A stretch of DNA of 64,000 nucleotides, from NCBI GenBank assembly GCA_963698465.1, contig CAVOQY010000004.1, forward strand, positions 227,609-291,608, given 5' to 3'. The stretch's first letter is position 1, and each line of letters opens with the position of its first letter. Shown one piece after another: positions 34,516 to 42,444 of this stretch. The position numbers and the translations under genes are program-made. The DNA comes from an uncultured delta proteobacterium. GTDB lineage: Bacteria; Desulfobacterota; Desulfobacteria; Desulfobacterales; UBA2156. A model generated the notes under the pieces. The model did no database searches. It worked only from the letters and a program-made list of their open reading frames with translations, and was not told the origin of the DNA.

Positions 34516-35361
34516 ATGATCATCGACTTTCACACCCATCTTTTTCCCAAAAAAATCCGGGACCACCGGGAGCGTTTTTTCGACGGGGAGCCGGCGTTTC
34601 GGCTCCTCTATGAATCCCCTTCGTCACGGCTTGCCGGGGAGGACGACCTCCTCAAGGCCATGGACCACGACGGCGTCGATGTCTCCGTGGTTTTCGGCTT
34701 TCCGTGGAAGAACCCCGACACGGCGAAGCGTCACAACGATGGCATCCTGGAGGCTGTTTCCGCCCACCCGGAACGGTTCGTCGGCCTGTGCTGCCTGGAT
34801 CCAAATTCGGATCCTTCCGGGCAGGAGGTCCGGCGCTGCCTTGACAGCGGGCTTTCCGGCGTGGGGGAGATCGCCTTTTACGACTCCGAGCTTGATGAAC
34901 GGAGCCTGGACAGTCTGGAATCCATCATGGAAATCTGCAGGAGCCGGGACTTGCCGGTCCTGATCCATGTGAACGAGCCCGTCGGGCACCGTTATGCCGG
35001 CAAGACGCGGATGACGTTTGCCCAGATCGAGGCGCTTTGCCGCCGGTATCCCGAAAATCGCCTCGTCCTGGCGCACTGGGGCGGTGGATTTTTCTTTTTT
35101 TATCTTTTGAAAAAAGAGATGAAAAAAGCCCTTGAAAATATCTTTTTCGACACCGCCGCCTCGCCCTTTCTGTATGATCCCAAAATCTACAGGGTGGCGG
35201 TGGAAATCCTCGGCCCCGAAAAGATCCTTTTCGGAAGCGATTTCCCCCTGATCCGGGCCGAAAGAGGCCTTCAGGAAATGGAAACGGCAGGACTGAACAA
35301 GGAAGCATTAGACCCGATCCGGGGGCTCAATGCCGGAAATCTGTTGAAACTAAGCCTCTAA
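34516..35361 (+). CDS. Amidohydrolase family (Amidohydro_2) metallohydrolase
   Basis: IIDFHTH, GVGEI, LIH, LAHWGGG, FDTAA, ILFGSDFP. Confidence 0.88.
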   Translation: MIIDFHTHLFPKKIRDHRERFFDGEPAFRLLYESPSSRLAGEDDLLKAMDHDGVDVSVVFGFPWKNPDTAKRHNDGILEAVSAHPERFVGLCCLDPNSDPSGQEVRRCLDSGLSGVGEIAFYDSELDERSLDSLESIMEICRSRDLPVLIHVNEPVGHRYAGKTRMTFAQIEALCRRYPENRLVLAHWGGGFFFFYLLKKEMKKALENIFFDTAASPFLYDPKIYRVAVEILGPEKILFGSDFPLIRAERGLQEMETAGLNKEALDPIRGLNAGNLLKLSL

Positions 35362-36024
35362 ATCCAGCCTCTCGAGAAGGGCTTGAACCGGATCCCGATG
35401 CTCCCGGGGGACCTTCAATCGGCGCAAAAGACGGTTTCCGAGGATCCCTTGGCGCGTCGCCCGAAGTTCTGGAAGCACCTCATCAGGAAAAGCGCCTTGA
35501 TGCCCTAATTCCAGAAACACGTCGATTAAGTTTCCCGAAAATCCCTTTGCATCCAGATGTTCGATGACCTGCAAGAGGACGCTGGTGGTGGTAAGGACAA
35601 CGGGTTTTACCGTGGCATATCCCGAATCCCGGCAAGATGCCTCGGAAACCATGGAGCGGCACATGAACGGGCGAACGGCATAGATCGTGCATTTTTCCCC
35701 CTCCAGCAAGGGGCACGGACCCCAGCTGGGGTCTCCTCCCTCTTCGGGGAGATCCCTTCCCGAATCGAGGAGTTCGGCCATCCCGTTCAAGGTGATGGAG
35801 GGCTGGAACCGGGGAAGATCCCTCGAAAAAAGAAGCCGCCGAAAAAGGTCCCGGCGTGAAGGTCCGTTCAGGTTTTCGAGGACCCATCGCCCCTCCAGGG
35901 CGGTCATCGTCACGTTTCGGGTGCAGCAGGCCGTGCATCCGGGTTTGCAGGATTTGGGCTGCCCCTCTACAAACGCATCGAAGAGCCGGTAGATCTTCTG
36001 TAATTGAGCGGACCGTTCATCCAC
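35350..36024 (-). CDS. YkgJ-family cysteine-cluster (CxxGCxxCC) protein
   Basis: CKPGCTACC..CPLL..CTIYAVRPFMCR; GTG start. Confidence 0.8.
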   Translation of the reverse strand: MDERSAQLQKIYRLFDAFVEGQPKSCKPGCTACCTRNVTMTALEGRWVLENLNGPSRRDLFRRLLFSRDLPRFQPSITLNGMAELLDSGRDLPEEGGDPSWGPCPLLEGEKCTIYAVRPFMCRSMVSEASCRDSGYATVKPVVLTTTSVLLQVIEHLDAKGFSGNLIDVFLELGHQGAFPDEVLPELRATRQGILGNRLLRRLKVPREHRDPVQALLERLDLEA

Positions 36025-36086: not shown

Positions 36087-36123
36087 AGTTTCCAAATGGA
36101 AACTGCCGATTTCCATACGGAAA
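36087..36123. promoter_or_regulatory. Tandem palindromic sites TTTCC-N4-GGAAA (putative enhancer for a sigma54 activator)
   Basis: TTTCC-AAAT-GGAAA at 36089-36102 and TTTCC-ATAC-GGAAA at 36110-36123, 21 bp apart. Confidence 0.6.
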
Positions 36124-36190
36124 CAAAGGGGTGTGAATCTGGAGCGCTTCTGTTCTTTCTTCCGGGTTTCCATTAAAGCCTCCGAGATTA

Positions 36191-36203
36191 CAACCATTTG
36201 ATA
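36191..36203 (-). promoter_or_regulatory. IHF consensus site
   Basis: Minus strand TATCAA-ATGG-TTG matches WATCAANNNNTTR, in an AT-rich patch between palindromes and sigma54 box. Confidence 0.6.
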
Positions 36204-36254
36204 TCAAAGTGTAATTTTGTTATATGAGGGCAATCTGCTCCGAGAAAAGAAAAT

Positions 36255-36270
36255 GGGCACGGTATTTGCT
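36255..36270 (+). promoter_or_regulatory. Sigma54 (RpoN) -24/-12 promoter
   Basis: GGGCACGGTATTTGCT: GG(36256-7)-N10-GC(36268-9); one mismatch to TGGCACG-N4-TTGCW. Confidence 0.7.
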
Positions 36271-36280
36271 TCCTCTTAAT

Positions 36281-36343
36281 TGCACGTGCATTTCTTCATC
36301 TTCATTTTCTCCTTAACGGCTGGTCCTTGGGACCGGCCGTTTT
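36281..36343 (+). ncRNA. Candidate sigma54-dependent small RNA with anti-SD/anti-AUG region
   Basis: Predicted +1 near 36281; pyrimidine tract TTCTTCATCTTCATTTTCTCCTT then 12-bp hairpin and T-run; no + strand gene downstream. Confidence 0.6.
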
Positions 36344-36351
36344 CATTTCTT
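36315..36351 (+). terminator. Intrinsic terminator
   Basis: AACGGCTGGTCC-TTG-GGACCGGCCGTT followed by TTCATTTCTT. Confidence 0.7.
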
Positions 36352-37038
36352 AAGCCCTGAAACTTCCTCTTTTGCCAGCTCCATGAACAGCGAATCCGGA
36401 AATTCGGAAAGGATCCGGTTGAGTTTTTCGGATTTGGCCTCGGTGCCACTTGCCGGGTCGGAAAGATGCGCCAAGATAAACAGAGCCTCGTCTTTCAACA
36501 GAGGCTCATCTCCGGAGGCGATCTGCTCGAAGCACCGGACCGCCTGCCCGGAATCCTGCTTTTTTAGGTAGGCATGCCCCAGCCCGCTCAAGATGACGTT
36601 TTTCAGCAGAGGCTGACCCCCGAAATCCTCAATTGCATGCTGGTAAGCCGCGATGGCTGCGTCCAGGTCACCGGTCCGATAAAGGAGATTGGCCAATAGA
36701 ACCCGCCCCATTTTCCCGGAACCGGTGTCGGGGAACTTCTCCACAAAACTCCTCAGCATTTCTTTGACCCGCGCCCGATCTTGAGAGGCGTTTGGATCCT
36801 TTTCGGCCAAGCGATAGGCCGCCATGACCTCTCCGAAGGCGGCAACCGACTGCCTGTTCTGGACCCGCTTATAATAGATCCATCCGGAAAAGGCCGCAGC
36901 AGAAAAAACCGCAGCTGCCACTCCCCAGACGATCCTATCCCTGTTCTGATCGATCCATCGAATTATTCTCGCTGAAATCGTGATAAATTCATCCGGTTCT
37001 TTCAAGAGTTGTTTTCTCGTGACTTTTTTCTTTGCCAT
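36343..37038 (-). CDS. Membrane-anchored TPR protein (YfgM-like)
   Basis: Basic N-terminus RKQLLKEPDEF, one TM, TPR-like helices, FPDS; GGAGG RBS before 37038. Confidence 0.75.
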   Translation of the reverse strand: MAKKKVTRKQLLKEPDEFITISARIIRWIDQNRDRIVWGVAAAVFSAAAFSGWIYYKRVQNRQSVAAFGEVMAAYRLAEKDPNASQDRARVKEMLRSFVEKFPDTGSGKMGRVLLANLLYRTGDLDAAIAAYQHAIEDFGGQPLLKNVILSGLGHAYLKKQDSGQAVRCFEQIASGDEPLLKDEALFILAHLSDPASGTEAKSEKLNRILSEFPDSLFMELAKEEVSGLKK

Positions 37039-37307
37039 CTTTCCTCCGGCTGTCAACACTCCCCGGTTCCTCGCAAGGGAAGCCGTGGGGATCGGTTGAA
37101 CGGGCCTCCTTCAATGGGGCCTTGATTTGGGGGGCGTCTTTACAAATCTTCCGGCATCCTGTATGTCGGGCTGCAAGCCTCATAGGACATTCCGGGGATC
37201 CGGGCAACAAAAAAGAGGCCTGCCCTGCTTTTCCACTTCAGGGCCGGGATCCGCTTGGCCCCGGGAAGCGGCTTGCTTTTTTTCACAAGGTGATTATGGT
37301 CACGGTT

Positions 37308-39057
37308 ATGGAAAAACGATTCGAAAAAATACCCGATCCCAAGGAGCTGGAAAAGGAAATCGGCGAGTTTTTGACCAAGAAGTTCGGGGAGTCGGTCAAG
37401 ATCGCAGGCCCCATTGTCCTGCCCCAGGAGCTTCCCTTCGAAAAGCCGGGACCCGGGAAAAAGAAAAAGAAGATCAATTTCGATCTCAAGCCTGAAGATC
37501 TGATCGCCTATCTGGATCGTTACATCGTCAAGCAGGACAACGCCAAGGCCATTCTGGCAACCAAGATCTGCACCCACTTTAACCGGATCAAGCGTTCCCA
37601 GGACAGCGGGGGCGATATCCCCGATATGGTCGGGCACATAAAAAACAATGTCCTGATGATCGGTCCCACCGGGGTGGGCAAGACCTACATGATCAAGCTC
37701 ATCGCAAAGAAAATCGGGGTCCCTTTCGTCAAGGGGGATGCCACAAAGTTCAGCGAAACCGGTTATGTGGGCGGAGATGTGGAGGACCTGGTGCAGGGAC
37801 CTGGTCCGCGAGGCGGACGGAGACATCGAACTGGCCCAGTACGGGATCATTTACATCGACGAGATCGACAAAATCGCCGCCAGTCGCTACATCCTCGGAG
37901 CCGACGTGTCCCGGACAGGCGTTCAACGGGCGCTGCTCAAACCGTTGGAGGAAACCGAGGTCGACCTGAAAGTCCCCCACGATCCCATTTCCATGATCCA
38001 GGAGATCGAACGTTACCGCAAGACTGGAAAACGCGACAAACGGGGAGTCAACACCAAGAATATCCTGTTCATCGTCAGCGGCGCCTTCACCGACCTCGCG
38101 GAAATCATCCGCAAGCGCATGATCGACCAGAAAATGGGATTCGGGGCCAAAATCCAGAGCACAAAAGAACAGGTGGACATCCTGAAACATGTCAAATCAG
38201 AAGATTTGATCACCTTCGGCTTCGAGACCGAGTTCGTCGGAAGGCTCCCGGTTAGGGCGGTTTTCGAACACCTGACCCGAGAAGACCTTCTGGATATCTT
38301 GAAAAACCCCAACAACCCGATTCTCATGGGGAAGAAATTCGATTTTGCCGCCTACGGCATCGATGTCCGATTCGAGGAAGACCTTCTTGTGCTTCTGGCC
38401 GACCTCGCCTTTCAGGAAAACACCGGGGCCCGGGGACTGGTGAGCGCGGTGGAAAAAGCCCTCCTTCCTTTTGAAAGGCGGCTTCCCTCCACTCAGGTCA
38501 AGGTCTTTCCCGCCACCACCGCCATTGTCGAGAACCCTCAAAAGGCCCTGGAAAAACTCGTCGCCCCGGAAAACCATGAAAGCACCGCGAAAATCCATGA
38601 GGCGCTGCTTACGGCGGAAAAGGAGCGCATCAAAGCCTACTGCCATGCCAACCGGAAGGAACTTTCCGAAAAGTACAACCTGACGCTTTCGCAGTCCCGC
38701 ATCGACAACGTGGCAAGCTGCTACTGCCGTACGATTGTGGACGTGGGAAGCGCCATCGAGAAGGTCAAGACCTTCTACGACGAGATCAAAAAGATCGAAT
38801 TGTACTTTTACAAGAGCCACGACATCAATATTGTTTTGGAAGAAGACGCGGTGGACTACATTATCGAACAACTGATTCATACGCCGCTTGAGATCAAGGA
38901 TTTTTACAAGAAGCTGACCTCGGACTTCGAATTGGGGCTCAAGCTCGTCAGGGAAAAAACGGGAAGGAACCGGTTTTTCATCACCCGGGAAGCCTTGTTG
39001 AATCCGGAATCCCACATCAGCGCTCTCATCAAGGACGAACTCAAACAGGTGAGATAG
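37308..39057 (+). pseudogene. ClpX-like AAA+ ATPase with apparent +1 frameshift near 37794 (possibly assembly error)
   Basis: First frame: KNNVLMIGPTGVGKT, DATKFSETGYVGGDVEDLV; second frame continues RDLVREADGD, IIYIDEIDKI, DVSRTGVQRALLK, MGF, EFVGRLP, TGARGL. Confidence 0.8.
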
Positions 39058-39139: not shown

Positions 39140-40318
39140 ATGATCGGGATATCCAAACTTTACTGCGATACGGTGGAGCCTTCCGACGCGCTTCGTTACG
39201 GGAGAGACTCTTCCCGCCTGCCGTCCCACTTGCTGCAATTTTCCCAGGACAAACGGCCGGTGGTGGTCTGGAACGTCACCCGGCAATGCAACCTGAACTG
39301 CATTCACTGCTATGCCCGAGCCAGGCATACCCCCACCGAGGACGAGTTGACACTGGAAGAAGGCCGACACCTCATGGATGACCTGGCCCGGTTTGGCGTG
39401 CCGGTCCTCCTTTTCTCCGGCGGTGAGCCCTTGGCCCGAAAAGATCTTCCGGATCTGGCCGCCTACGCGGTGGAAAAAGGGATGCGGGCCGTGATCTCCA
39501 CCAACGGCACGCTCATCACCCGCGAAACAGCCCGAATTTTGAAAGAAATCGGGCTTTCTTATGTGGGAATCAGCCTGGACGGAATGGAAACCGTGAACGA
39601 CCGGTTCAGGGGGGTTGCCGGCGCGTTTCAAATGGCCCTGGAGGGAATCCGGAACTGCCAGGAGACCGGAATCAAGGTGGGTCTTCGATTTACCATCAAC
39701 AAATTCAATGCAAAAGAAATCCAAAAGATCTTTGCCTTGTTGGAGACAAAAGACATTCCCCGGGTCTGTTTCTATCATCTGGTCTATGCCGGCCGGGGAT
39801 CCAAACTCGTGGAAGAGGACCTTTCCCATGAACAGTCCCGGGAAGCGGTGGACCTGATCCTCGATCTGACCCGGGATCTCCATCAACGGGGAAAACCCAA
39901 GGAGGTCCTCACCGTCGACAACCATGCAGACGGACCTTATCTCTACCTGCGGCTTTTAAAGGAGAACCCGAGCCGCGCGGCTGAAGTCCTCGAACTCTTA
40001 AAGATGAACGAGGGCAACAATTCCGGGCGGGGAATCGGATGTATCAGCTGGAACGGAGACGTGCATGCCGATCAGTTTTGGCGGCACCACAGCTTCGGAA
40101 ACGTGAAAGAACGCCCCTTTTCCGAAATCTGGAGCGATCTGTCCGACCCGCTGATGAAAAAATTGAAAGAGAAAAAAAATCACGTCAAAGGACGATGCGC
40201 CCGGTGCAGGTGGCTCGACATCTGCGCCGGCAATTTCAGGGTTCGGGCCGAAGCGGTTACAGGAGATCTATGGGCGCCGGATCCGGCGTGTTACCTCACC
40301 GACTCGGAAATCGCATGA
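39140..40318 (+). CDS. ahbC: 12,18-didecarboxysiroheme deacetylase (radical SAM/SPASM)
   Basis: MIGISKLYC, VVWNVTRQCNLNCIHCY, YHLVYAGRG, EVLTVDNHADG, DPACYL; next to hemB. Confidence 0.9.
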   Translation: MIGISKLYCDTVEPSDALRYGRDSSRLPSHLLQFSQDKRPVVVWNVTRQCNLNCIHCYARARHTPTEDELTLEEGRHLMDDLARFGVPVLLFSGGEPLARKDLPDLAAYAVEKGMRAVISTNGTLITRETARILKEIGLSYVGISLDGMETVNDRFRGVAGAFQMALEGIRNCQETGIKVGLRFTINKFNAKEIQKIFALLETKDIPRVCFYHLVYAGRGSKLVEEDLSHEQSREAVDLILDLTRDLHQRGKPKEVLTVDNHADGPYLYLRLLKENPSRAAEVLELLKMNEGNNSGRGIGCISWNGDVHADQFWRHHSFGNVKERPFSEIWSDLSDPLMKKLKEKKNHVKGRCARCRWLDICAGNFRVRAEAVTGDLWAPDPACYLTDSEIA

Positions 40319-40342
40319 AAGCTTGAAGAAAAGGAAAAACGC

Positions 40343-41317
40343 ATGCTTTTCCCCGACTACAGGCCCCGGCGGCTTCGGCAGCACCCGGCGTTTCGGAAAA
40401 TGATCCGCGAGACCCGGTTGTTCGTGGATGACCTCGTGCTGCCCCTGTTCGCCGCCCACGGCAAGGGAATCCGGGAACCGATCCCCTCCATGCCCGGTCA
40501 GTACCACTTATCCACGGACCATCTGGCCAAGATCGCCGAGGAGGCTTTCGGGCTGGGGATTCCAGCCGTCATCCTTTTCGGAATCCCCAGAAAAAAGGAC
40601 GCCCTAGGCACCGAGGCCTACGCCAAAGACGGCATCGTCCAGAAAGCGGTGCAGGCCGTCAAAAACAAAGTCCCCGATCTGGCCGTGATCACCGACGTGT
40701 GTCTGTGCCAGTACACCGACCACGGACATTGCGGCATCGTCAACAACCAAAAAATCGACAATGACGCCTCCCTGGAGCTTCTGGCCAAAGTCGCGCTTTC
40801 CCATGCCCGAGCCGGCGCCGACATGGTGGCCCCTTCCGACATGATGGACGGCAGGGTGGGGGAAATCCGGGAAACCCTCGACGAGGCGGGATTTGAGCAC
40901 ACCCCCATCATGTCCTATGCCGCCAAGTACTGCTCGGCCTATTACGGCCCTTTCCGGCAGGCGGCCAATTCCGCTCCCAAATTCGGGAATCGACAGACCT
41001 ACCAGATGGACCCTGCCAACGCCCTCGAGGCGCTCCGGGAGGTGACCATGGATATCGAAGAAGGTGCGGACATCATCATGGTCAAACCCGCCCTGGCCTA
41101 TCTGGACGTCATCTGCCGGGTGCGGGAGGAGATCGACCTTCCCGTGGCCGCCTACAACGTCAGCGGCGAATATGCCATGATCAAGGCCGCCGACAAAATG
41201 GGAGTCCTCGACGGCAAGAAGGTCATGATGGAAACCCTCACCGCCATCAAAAGGGCCGGGGCTGACATCATCCTCACCTATTTCGCCCTGGAAGCGGCGG
41301 CGGCGCTCCGGGAATGA
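40343..41317 (+). CDS. hemB: Porphobilinogen synthase
   Basis: [43 protein letters not shown]. Confidence 0.97.
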
Positions 41318-42444
41318 ACCGGCCTCAGGAAAAAAGCGCAGGGCCGGCATCCTCCCCCATGAATGGGCAGACCCACCCGGGGCACGCCCGGCCGGGGGAC
41401 GGCGGCCCCCGCCTGGTGGCCTGGGAGATCACCCGAAATTGCAACCTGTCCTGCGTCCACTGCCGGGCTTCCGCCACCTGCGGGCCCCATGCCGGGGAGC
41501 TGTCCACGGATACAGCCCTGACTCTGGTGGGGCAGATCGCCCAAACGGGAAGCCCCATTGTCATCCTGACCGGCGGCGAACCCCTGTTGCGGGAAGATAT
41601 TTTCGAGATCGCCGATTACGGAACGAAAAAGGGGTTGAGGATGGTCATGGCCCCCAACGGGACCCTCATCACCGGGAAAATCGCCCGAAAGCTTGCCGTA
41701 TCGGGCATCCGGCGGCTCAGTATCAGCCTGGACGGCGCCTCAGCAGAGATCCACGACCGATTTCGAGGTGTGAAAGGCGCATTCGAAGGCGCGCTGCGGG
41801 GAATCCGCCACATCAAATCCGCGGGAATCGAATTCCAGATCAACACCACCATCACCCAGACCAACCTCGATCAGATACCCAAAATCCAGGATCTGGCTGT
41901 CAAACTGGGTGCGGTGGCCCACCATATCTTCCTTCTGGTTCCCACCGGCCGAGGAAAATATATCATTGGCAGCGCCATCTCCGCCGAGCAGTACGAATCC
42001 ACCTTGAACTGGTTCTACGACCAGAGAAGCCGGACTTCCCTGCAGTTGAAAGCCACCTGTGCCCCCCATTACTACCGGATCCTCCGGCAGCGGTCCAAAG
42101 CCGAAGGCATCTCGGTCACGTTCCAGACCCACGGCCTGGATGCCGTCACCCGAGGGTGCCTGGGAGGCATCGGCTTTTGTTTCATATCCCACCGCGGCAT
42201 CGTTCAACCCTGCGGGTTTCTCAATCTCGACTGCGGGGATGTCACCCAAACTTCCTTTCCAAAAATCTGGGAGCACTCCGAAATTTTCCGGTCCTTGCGC
42301 GACTTCGGCCGCCTGAAAGGCAAATGCGGCGTGTGCGGATACCGGAAGGTCTGCGGGGGCTGCCGGGCAAGAGCCTACGAAGCCACCGGCGACTACCTTG
42401 CCGAAGAACCGCTTTGCAGTTACCAGCCGCCCTCCCGCTCCTGA
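41314..42444 (+). CDS. ahbD: Heme b synthase (radical SAM/SPASM)
   Basis: [53 protein letters not shown]. Confidence 0.9.

Follow-up and report, generated by a model that had tools for sequence, protein, structure and literature searches.

The stretch of DNA considered here (the window) comprises 64,000 nucleotides (nt) of the genome of an uncultured delta proteobacterium of the Desulfobacterales (contig CAVOQY010000004.1, positions 227,609 to 291,608), and the element in question is a candidate small-RNA gene that lies in it between a YkgJ-like and a YfgM-like gene. A first-pass annotation, made from the sequence alone, had described this intergenic region as a complete sigma-54 module, i.e. 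enhancer, IHF site and -24/-12 promoter, from which a short RNA directed against ribosome-binding sites (RBSs) would be transcribed. By following the module, the RNA, its putative regulator and its predicted target through related genomes, we find support for a sigma-54-dependent RNA gene and for a porin message as its likely target. The elements at the locus and the two neighbouring genes are as follows (coordinates of the window).

36088-36103, no strand assigned: putative upstream activator site 1, palindrome GTTTCC-N4-GGAAAC (GTTTCCAAATGGAAAC), read in the sequence and conserved in relatives.
36109-36124, no strand assigned: putative upstream activator site 2, palindrome ATTTCC-N4-GGAAAC (ATTTCCATACGGAAAC), read in the sequence and in relatives.
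36191-36203, minus strand: IHF-like bending site, an exact consensus match (WATCAANNNNTTR) between the activator sites and the promoter.
36256-36270, plus strand: putative sigma-54 promoter GGCACGGTATTTGCT, with -24 element GGCAC and -12 element TTGCT (GG-N10-GC), from sequence and conservation.
36281-36349, plus strand: predicted small RNA of about 65-69 nt, its start predicted from sigma-54 geometry (11-12 nt past the -12 GC) and its end placed in the T-run.
36290-36314, plus strand: pyrimidine tract, read in the sequence.
36291-36318, plus strand: predicted anti-RBS seed, with an anti-Shine-Dalgarno CUCC and two anti-AUG CAU triplets, unpaired in the minimum-energy fold.
36315-36341, plus strand: Rho-independent terminator hairpin of 12 base pairs (bp), from the fold and a terminator scan.
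36342-36351, plus strand: T-run TTTTCATTTCTT after the hairpin, on this strand only.
35350-36024, minus strand: YkgJ-like CxxCxxCC gene, the divergent neighbour (Pfam and open reading frame).
36343-37059, minus strand: YfgM-like gene with Pfam TPR_21, the convergent neighbour.

The motifs on which the first-pass annotation was built are where it placed them, i.e. the two TTTCC-N4-GGAAA palindromes (centres 21 bp apart, and 21-22 bp in relatives), the GG-N10-GC box, and the stretch of pyrimidines followed by a 12-bp hairpin and a T-run; likewise, no plus-strand gene follows the hairpin in the window, the next gene being the convergent YfgM-like one. The exact IHF consensus stands as regards its sequence and coordinates, but it matches the minus strand and not the plus strand on which it had been read. 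The hairpin has a predicted energy of -23.2 kcal/mol (z -6.1; none of 200 shuffles equals it) and was called by the terminator scan on the plus strand only. Between the palindromes and the IHF-like site, at 36164-36180, there is yet another GTTTCC half-site, the third (GGGTTTCCATTAAAGCC), and its conservation within the genus is partial.

Taken singly, two of these motifs carry little weight: GGCAC-N5-TTGC occurs 20 times in the genome as compared to 22 times in a reversed control, and the IHF consensus is found twice in the window where 1.23 occurrences are expected. The single palindrome TTTCC-N4-GGAAA has 30 genomic sites against 14 in the control, and a genome-wide scan recovered the tandem pair only here (3.55 Mb, at most two mismatches in total), with one pair in the reversed-sequence control as well. 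On their own, neither the -24/-12 box nor the IHF site does better than chance, and both derive their significance from conservation at fixed positions in relatives; because of this, the case for the module rests on other genomes.

In those genomes the elements of the module have been kept together. When 41 relatives were searched at the DNA level, each of the five genomes of the same genus gave a match of 83-89% identity that begins at the -24 box and ends just past the T-run, and the palindromes were matched separately. All eight aligned genomes of the family (f1) keep both palindromes, the TGATATCA core of the IHF-like site, GGCA...TTGCTT, the tract TTCATCTT...CTCCTTAACGG and the hairpin, while the spacers drift; the TTTCC and GGAAA halves of site 1 are invariant in these eight and in the seven sequences of a second alignment, and the TGATATCA core is kept in genera g1 and g3. 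Genus g2 likewise retains the boxes, the seed and a hairpin: the palindromes are kept and TTGGCAAGCTTTTTGCA is present, the body of the RNA is much diverged, and a different hairpin, of 13 bp, again ends at the stop codon of the YfgM-like gene. The motif GGCA-N6-TTGC is invariant in 11/11 sequences of the RNA family and in 39/39 aligned hits of a covariance model, and in both alignments the block TTCATCT...CTCCTTA, i.e. the seed region, is the best-conserved part.

The covariance model was built from the 11-sequence alignment and covers promoter, RNA and hairpin. Within the Desulfobacterales (order name taken from the record titles) it has full-length matches in 104 of the 151 genomes, and these represent 74 of the 109 genera; the counts have to be read with the inclusion of the promoter in the model and with its rough E-values in mind. 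Outside the order only five matches were found in the genomes of other orders (151-genome phylum sample), and these five have the same design as the copies within the order. An exact 25-nt seed pattern was found in 93 stretches of named genome records, the titles of which almost all refer to Desulfobacterales, Desulfobacteraceae, Desulfatitalea, Desulfosarcina, Desulfatibacillum or Desulfococcus; one of them is an isolate record of Desulfatitalea alkaliphila. The hairpin co-varies: six of 11 stem pairs are compensatory in the 11 sequences, and in the 39 sequences, the alignment of which was fitted to the model and so favours the stem counts, all 11 model pairs have changed on both sides with 98.1% of the cells paired, a level reached by none of 500 shuffles, whereas slid registers are 7-56% paired.

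No Rfam family accounts for the RNA, which the first-pass annotation had not recognised as belonging to a described family. In Rfam 15 (which includes Qrr, GlmY, MicF, MicA, RybB and suhB/mmgR) no family reaches its gathering threshold at the locus, the tRNAs alone do so in a scan of the whole window, and ten loci of the RNA family gave no Rfam match at E <= 0.01. The best match in the region is RF00519, suhB/mmgR, an anti-Shine-Dalgarno RNA of the alpha-proteobacteria that likewise has an unpaired CUCCUCC-like tract ahead of its terminator hairpin; membership was rejected, the score being 22 bits where 41 are required (E 0.035) and the first hairpin of suhB being left unmatched. Taken together, the locus is very probably a genuine sigma-54-dependent small-RNA gene. 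The GG and GC of the putative promoter are 10 nt apart, and paired upstream sites and a candidate cognate activator (see below) go with it.

The region ahead of the promoter shows a recurrent layout over the order. Reading by eye upstream of the 39 model hits, we find the -24 box usually preceded by a T (TGGCA), a palindrome about 150 nt upstream, and an AT-rich TAAC-N4-TGAAA-like element about 70-80 nt upstream, the relative position of which is the same in many loci. Two types of palindrome are seen, namely the paired GTTTCC-N4-GGAAAC of family f1 and of genomes G042, G052 and G120, and a single GTTCAAAA-TTTGAAC-like site in most others. In the window's genome (hereafter G000) the distances from the two putative activator sites down to the -24 box are about 165 and 145 bp; in G042, G052 and G120 the two sites, 21-22 bp apart, precede the -24 GG by about 165 and 143 nt, and there they sit downstream of the gene of a sigma-54 activator.

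The latter arrangement leads to a candidate regulator. G000 encodes three proteins of the HU/IHF family and sixteen full sigma-54 activators, none of which adjoins the RNA locus. A Pfam scan of the neighbours of 29 RNA loci revealed in ten of them, directly upstream and on the same strand, a gene with the domains Response_reg, Sigma54_activat and HTH_8, most of these ten loci having a convergent TPR gene downstream. The corresponding genes of G000 are found elsewhere in the genome (C14):

G000:C14:677514-678884: NtrC-type response regulator (Response_reg, Sigma54_activat, HTH_8), ortholog of the RNA-linked activator.
G000:C14, about 678.9-680.3 kb: histidine kinase with two membrane segments around an outside domain of about 165 residues, preceding the activator in the operon.

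With 69% identity, this activator is closer to the one linked to the RNA in G120 than are the other fifteen, which reach at most 53%. Its orthogroup is present in 126 of 151 genomes (E <= 1e-130), and in 46 of the 104 RNA-positive genomes a copy of the RNA lies 100-780 nt downstream of the ortholog on the same strand (coordinates compared by hand). Neither a second RNA nor a second palindrome pair was found beside the activator operon in G000, and NCBIfam supplies no equivalog name for activator or kinase, the closest models, AtoC/AtoS and ZraR/ZraS, being well under their cut-offs. A DUF362 gene follows the activator in the operon region of C14 (L072); a DUF362/4Fe-4S gene also follows the RNA in the out-of-order relative G252 (L188), which hints at an older gene order of activator, RNA and then DUF362.

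The recognition helices of the activators appear to follow the type of upstream site. In seven loci with the GTTCAAAA-TTTGAAC-type site the helix reads SGLN(W/Q)KIKK(F/Y), whereas in the three loci with paired GTTTCC-N4-GGAAAC it is SGFSKKIKKY, SGFSKKLKKY or SGFNKKIRKH, and the helix of the G000 activator, SVMSKKIKKH, resembles the latter. This suggests that helix type tracks site type, with the reservation that the genomes of the GTTTCC type may be a single clade; the DNA specificity of the activator would then appear to have been re-set within one orthogroup, between paired GTTTCC sites and a single GTTCAAAA-TTTGAAC site. On the basis of orthology, gene order and helix type, we regard the two-component system on C14 as the regulator of the RNA with good, though not complete, confidence.

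The tract of the RNA was noticed at first pass to be antisense to a Shine-Dalgarno sequence, an ATG and Met-Lys codons, and exported proteins starting with MKK were guessed as targets; the comparison with the rest of the genome narrows this guess to a single gene. In a DNA search positions 36291-36318 are identical at 27 of 28 positions to G000:C14:766087-766114, where a porin-like gene begins on the minus strand with its Shine-Dalgarno sequence, two ATGs in frame and the first few codons:

G000:C14:765067-766101, minus strand: porin-like gene, 345 residues, predicted target of the RNA.
G000:C14, about 766102-766280 (L019 1516-1690), minus strand: leader of the porin-like gene, its features read from the sequence.

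The predicted duplex between RNA and message has 28 contiguous pairs, 27 of which are Watson-Crick and one G-U. In a genome-wide duplex scan, limited to sites that share a 9-mer with the complement of the seed, this site ranks first at -46.1 kcal/mol and the next follows at -35.3, a gap of about 11 kcal/mol; such energies are inflated and serve for ranking, not as absolute values. The encoded protein (MKMKKLSVLF...) opens with what resembles a signal peptide and has Phe as its last residue; its gene is single-copy in this genome, and the protein belongs to no Pfam or NCBIfam family. Its homologs are mostly named hypothetical (among 120 listed, PF13609 occurs in three and PF13505 in one, and one is named porin family protein). 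An AlphaFold2 model (34 sequences, pLDDT 91.8) has as top Foldseek matches DcaP, V. cholerae OmpT, PorB, Omp32 and OmpF, with probability 1.0 and TM scores of 0.6-0.73. Signal peptide, terminal aromatic residue and predicted fold thus all point to a general (16-stranded) porin-like protein.

The complementarity is not confined to G000. In all 20 RNA-bearing genomes in which a homolog of the porin was obtained, the RNA is complementary to the region around the RBS of that homolog, and in 22 of 22 genomes with both RNA and target (these 20 plus G155 and G057) the RBS duplex is stronger than those of dinucleotide shuffles, with z-scores of -2.7 to -10.6 that are in part generic, since anti-Shine-Dalgarno tracts pair with many RBSs. 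The Pfam model of Hfq has no match in G000 (98.2% complete), while controls matched in five genomes. In G140 the RNA gene (C99 2337-2435) and the porin homolog (C99 4704-5855) are found about 2.3 kb apart on the same strand. It is likely that the porin message is the main target and that it is repressed.

The porin leader, about 150 nt long, lies behind a near-consensus TTGACA-N17-TATACA promoter; it contains a hairpin on its 5' side as well as a GAAAGGAGGTGA-like element that is conserved. The latter, about 100 nt upstream of the porin start and kept in nearly all leaders examined, is a perfect mimic of a Shine-Dalgarno sequence, and may act as a stabiliser, as a standby site for ribosomes or as one more RNA-binding site. 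A second set of leader elements changes in step with the RNA: the 16 nt of the RNA that lie 5' of its anti-AUG vary by lineage, and the leader has one to three matching motifs above the RBS. Cognate RNAs and leaders match over these 16 nt with a mean of 9.65, as compared to 6.2 for non-cognate ones, and none of 20,000 permutations gives as high a value; the permutation ignores relatedness, so that the weight lies with the number of distinct flavours alone. At least five such flavours appear to differ between lineages with matched changes, for example (RNA with leader) CGUGCAUU with AAUGCACG repeats, CCUAAAUCUU with AAGAUUUAGG, AACAAUUUUUU with AAAAAAUUGUU, CCUAAUAAUU with AAUUAUUAGG repeats, and, in G057, AAACCUAACCUA with a (GGUUUA)n array. 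In that genome at least 15 tandem GGTTTA units (L197, C4, upstream of 59071) stand directly before the RBS and are complementary to the 5' end of its RNA. G155 and G057 yielded no homolog of this porin with a single query; in both, the leader design (GAAAGGGGGTGA element, AATTATTAGG repeats and complementary RBS) precedes another outer-membrane-type protein of about 435 residues that also ends in Phe.

These observations can be joined into a circuit that we consider probable: the locus would be a transcription unit of its own, under a two-component system and sigma-54, and its RNA of about 65 nt would pair in trans with a porin message and, probably independently of Hfq, block its translation. 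The membrane-bound histidine kinase, with its periplasmic sensor domain, would phosphorylate its NtrC-type partner (G000:C14:677514-678884), which would bind the two GTTTCC-N4-GGAAAC sites ahead of the -24 box, and an IHF-type bend would carry it to the sigma-54 polymerase at GGCAC-N5-TTGC, with transcription starting near 36281. The RNA would consist of an unstructured 5' part of 35 nt and the terminator hairpin. A duplex of 28 nt between the 5' part and the porin message would cover both start codons and the Shine-Dalgarno sequence, and the extreme 5' end of the RNA could in addition pair with one to several repeated motifs higher in the long leader; ribosome binding would be blocked and porin synthesis shut off. 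Given the apparent lack of Hfq, a duplex of such great length may stand in for the chaperone, and it would be a plausible substrate of RNase III.

Besides the reservations given with the individual counts and scores, several points weigh against this circuit. The gene for sigma-54 itself, rpoN (Sigma54_DBD match on G000:C13, about 40030-41500), is broken twice in the assembly and reads in three frames, i.e. an N-terminal, a middle and a C-terminal part with the RpoN box. We assume that the two frameshifts are probably indel errors of the assembly, although they could represent a real defect, because a ClpX-like AAA+ gene in the window (37032-39057, plus strand) is split likewise, into the overlapping frames 37032-38255 and 37738-39057; the split lies near the conserved VGGDVEDLV / IIYIDEIDKI region and also points to assembly errors. 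Moreover, the single porin query found a homolog in just 13 of 27 RNA-bearing genomes, and, with 126 of 151 genomes for the activator ortholog and 104 of 151 for the RNA (strict filters), many genomes have the activator and no RNA match. Finally, the strand, the 5' end and the regulation of the RNA have all been deduced from sequence, and the direction of regulation, i.e. repression, from the position of the duplex only.

On this last point an alternative has to be weighed in which the RNA is real and sigma-54-dependent and the porin is not repressed, the multi-site leader of the abundant message being a sponge that sets how much free RNA is left for other targets, or binding in the upstream leader being a means to stabilise or activate the porin message. 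The one to many extra sites for the RNA 5' end, up to the long array of G057, would suit such a role, as would the other genes with an SD-ATGAAGAA start (SD, Shine-Dalgarno), for which weaker duplexes are predicted. Nevertheless, it is at the Shine-Dalgarno sequence and the start codon that the duplex is strongest and best conserved, which is the classical geometry of a translational block, and the seeded scan revealed no second standout target in this genome, so that we judge this alternative improbable. A more elaborate version of the repression circuit takes both kinds of site into account: leader and RNA would form a co-evolving multi-site pair in which decoy arrays in the leader of a very abundant mRNA, ranging from a single site up to 15 or more tandem GGUUUA units, titrate the RNA, the porin being switched off only above a threshold of the sensor signal, while the specificity of the activator would have been re-set at least once, from single GTTCA-type to paired GTTTCC-type palindromes, with the target of the RNA kept. 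As a whole this version is doubtful; if true, it would describe a built-in sponge and an ultrasensitive, chaperone-free switch of outer-membrane permeability across an order of sulfate reducers.

The existence of the RNA could be questioned as well, by taking the hairpin as nothing but the terminator of the YfgM-like gene and the promoter and palindrome motifs as chance occurrences or as elements of the YkgJ-like gene, without any plus-strand RNA. Such a view draws on the distance between the hairpin and the stop codon of the YfgM-like gene (2 nt), on the insignificance of the -24/-12 and IHF motifs when taken singly, and on the location of the palindromes 64-100 bp upstream of the YkgJ-like start, but it is contradicted in several ways. 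The T-run, restricted to the plus strand here, is found on the RNA strand in 39/39 aligned copies, and in five of the 29 loci the unit lies between an amidohydrolase and an MFS transporter gene, i.e. without a convergent TPR gene. The palindromes travel with the RNA and not with the YkgJ-like gene, as is evident from genus g2, which has no YkgJ-like gene and yet retains both palindromes and RNA, and from G042, G052 and G120. As the best-conserved part is the stretch between promoter and hairpin, for which a terminator alone would not account, we consider this explanation very improbable.

Still less probable is a small peptide, MKMKKCTCN, encoded on the minus strand, for which AAGGAG would be the true RBS and the conservation that of a coding sequence. 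There is indeed a strong Shine-Dalgarno sequence followed by an ATG and a short open frame, and 36 of the 39 family members have both elements, but three have none, the frames range from 3 to 43 codons and their stops fall anywhere. The only shared part is MKK(LLG), i.e. the seed itself, and within the genus the continuation already changes from CTC to RTRC. Furthermore, only the hairpin precedes the frame where a promoter would be needed, the -24/-12 box being on the opposite strand. On account of the frame lengths and of the seed-encoded MKK(LLG) as sole common part, the peptide was rejected.

A functionless remnant of a partial duplication, in inverted orientation, of the porin 5' end, which the near identity of the antisense tract to the porin RBS and first codons (27/28, as in a recent copy) would bring to mind, has an equally negligible probability in view of the retention of the arrangement in 74 of 109 genera with many substitutions elsewhere and of the joint changes of RNA and leader in several lineages, where a relic would decay and not co-vary, although an origin of the RNA by such a duplication may be compatible with the repression circuit.

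In its logic, the circuit resembles systems known from other bacteria. The Qrr RNAs of Vibrio are under control of LuxO and sigma-54, and GlmY of the enterobacteria is under control of GlrK/GlrR and sigma-54. The likeness consists of the succession of an NtrC-class response regulator, a sigma-54 promoter and a short regulatory RNA, often adjoining the regulator gene and with sibling copies. In contrast, the RNA described here has no sequence or Rfam relationship to Qrr or GlmY, its activator scores far under the NCBIfam cut-offs for LuxO (370 vs 800) and GlrR (371 vs 763), its predicted target is a porin message, and Hfq was not found. With respect to the target the parallel is to MicF, MicC, MicA, RybB and VrrA, porin-repressing RNAs most of which require Hfq and whose promoters are constitutive or controlled by sigma-E or OmpR. 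A further porin-related RNA, NcS25 of Burkholderia, was dropped as a sigma-54-dependent parallel because it is described as constitutively expressed, the sigma-54-like elements being on the porin gene instead (PMC10117139). The RNAs of the MicF type and NcS25 share with the present one a short RNA that pairs with the Shine-Dalgarno sequence or start of an abundant porin message, a conserved predicted interaction, and a terminator shared with or abutting a neighbouring gene, whereas the present RNA differs by its putative sigma-54 promoter, the predicted duplex of 28 bp and the extra co-varying leader sites.

Closest in terms of phylogeny are non-coding RNAs of Desulfovibrio vulgaris Hildenborough. 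According to two reports (PMC3333781, PMC4641369), sigma-54-dependent non-coding RNAs lie downstream of the response regulators DVU0653 and of DVU0679 (Dv_sRNA2), another belongs to the envelope-stress regulon of DVU1419, and their functions are given as unknown; orthologs of DVU0653 are said to be confined to a few Desulfovibrio species, whereas DVU0679 has orthologs in some Desulfovibrio and in two distant organisms. As described there, these systems have in common with ours the phylum and a response-regulator activator with a small RNA directly downstream as its only, or nearly only, target, while the activator considered here is conserved across the Desulfobacterales; a distant relationship to those RNAs is possible. 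The literature searched contained no described RNA regulator for the Desulfobacterales and no description of this RNA in that order. What is already known is therefore the logic of response regulator, sigma-54 and small RNA, and the repression of porins by RBS-occluding RNAs. What appears to be new is the RNA family and its spread over the Desulfobacterales, its putative assignment to a two-component system, the single dominant predicted target, the co-varying multi-site leader and the apparent lack of Hfq.

The Desulfobacterales are major sulfate reducers of marine and freshwater sediments, and in most of their genera sequence data alone outline a complete and testable circuit, from sensor kinase via sigma-54 activator and small RNA to the main porin. 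If true, it would be a clear example of an RNA by way of which sigma-54 governs the permeability of the outer membrane. The RNAs and leaders would constitute a natural series of compensatory changes, usable to study the evolution of RNA-target pairs without Hfq, and the family would be a new entry for RNA databases and an aid to the annotation of many metagenome-assembled genomes.

In some genomes the RNA gene is present in two to four copies, some of them in tandem and each apparently with its own promoter. Examples are found in G155 (L045), in G060 (C1, 4038534 and 4039032), in G109 (C2, 347378 and 350085) and at L165, where three seed matches lie within 1.2 kb, and multiple copies per genome of this kind resemble sibling small RNAs.

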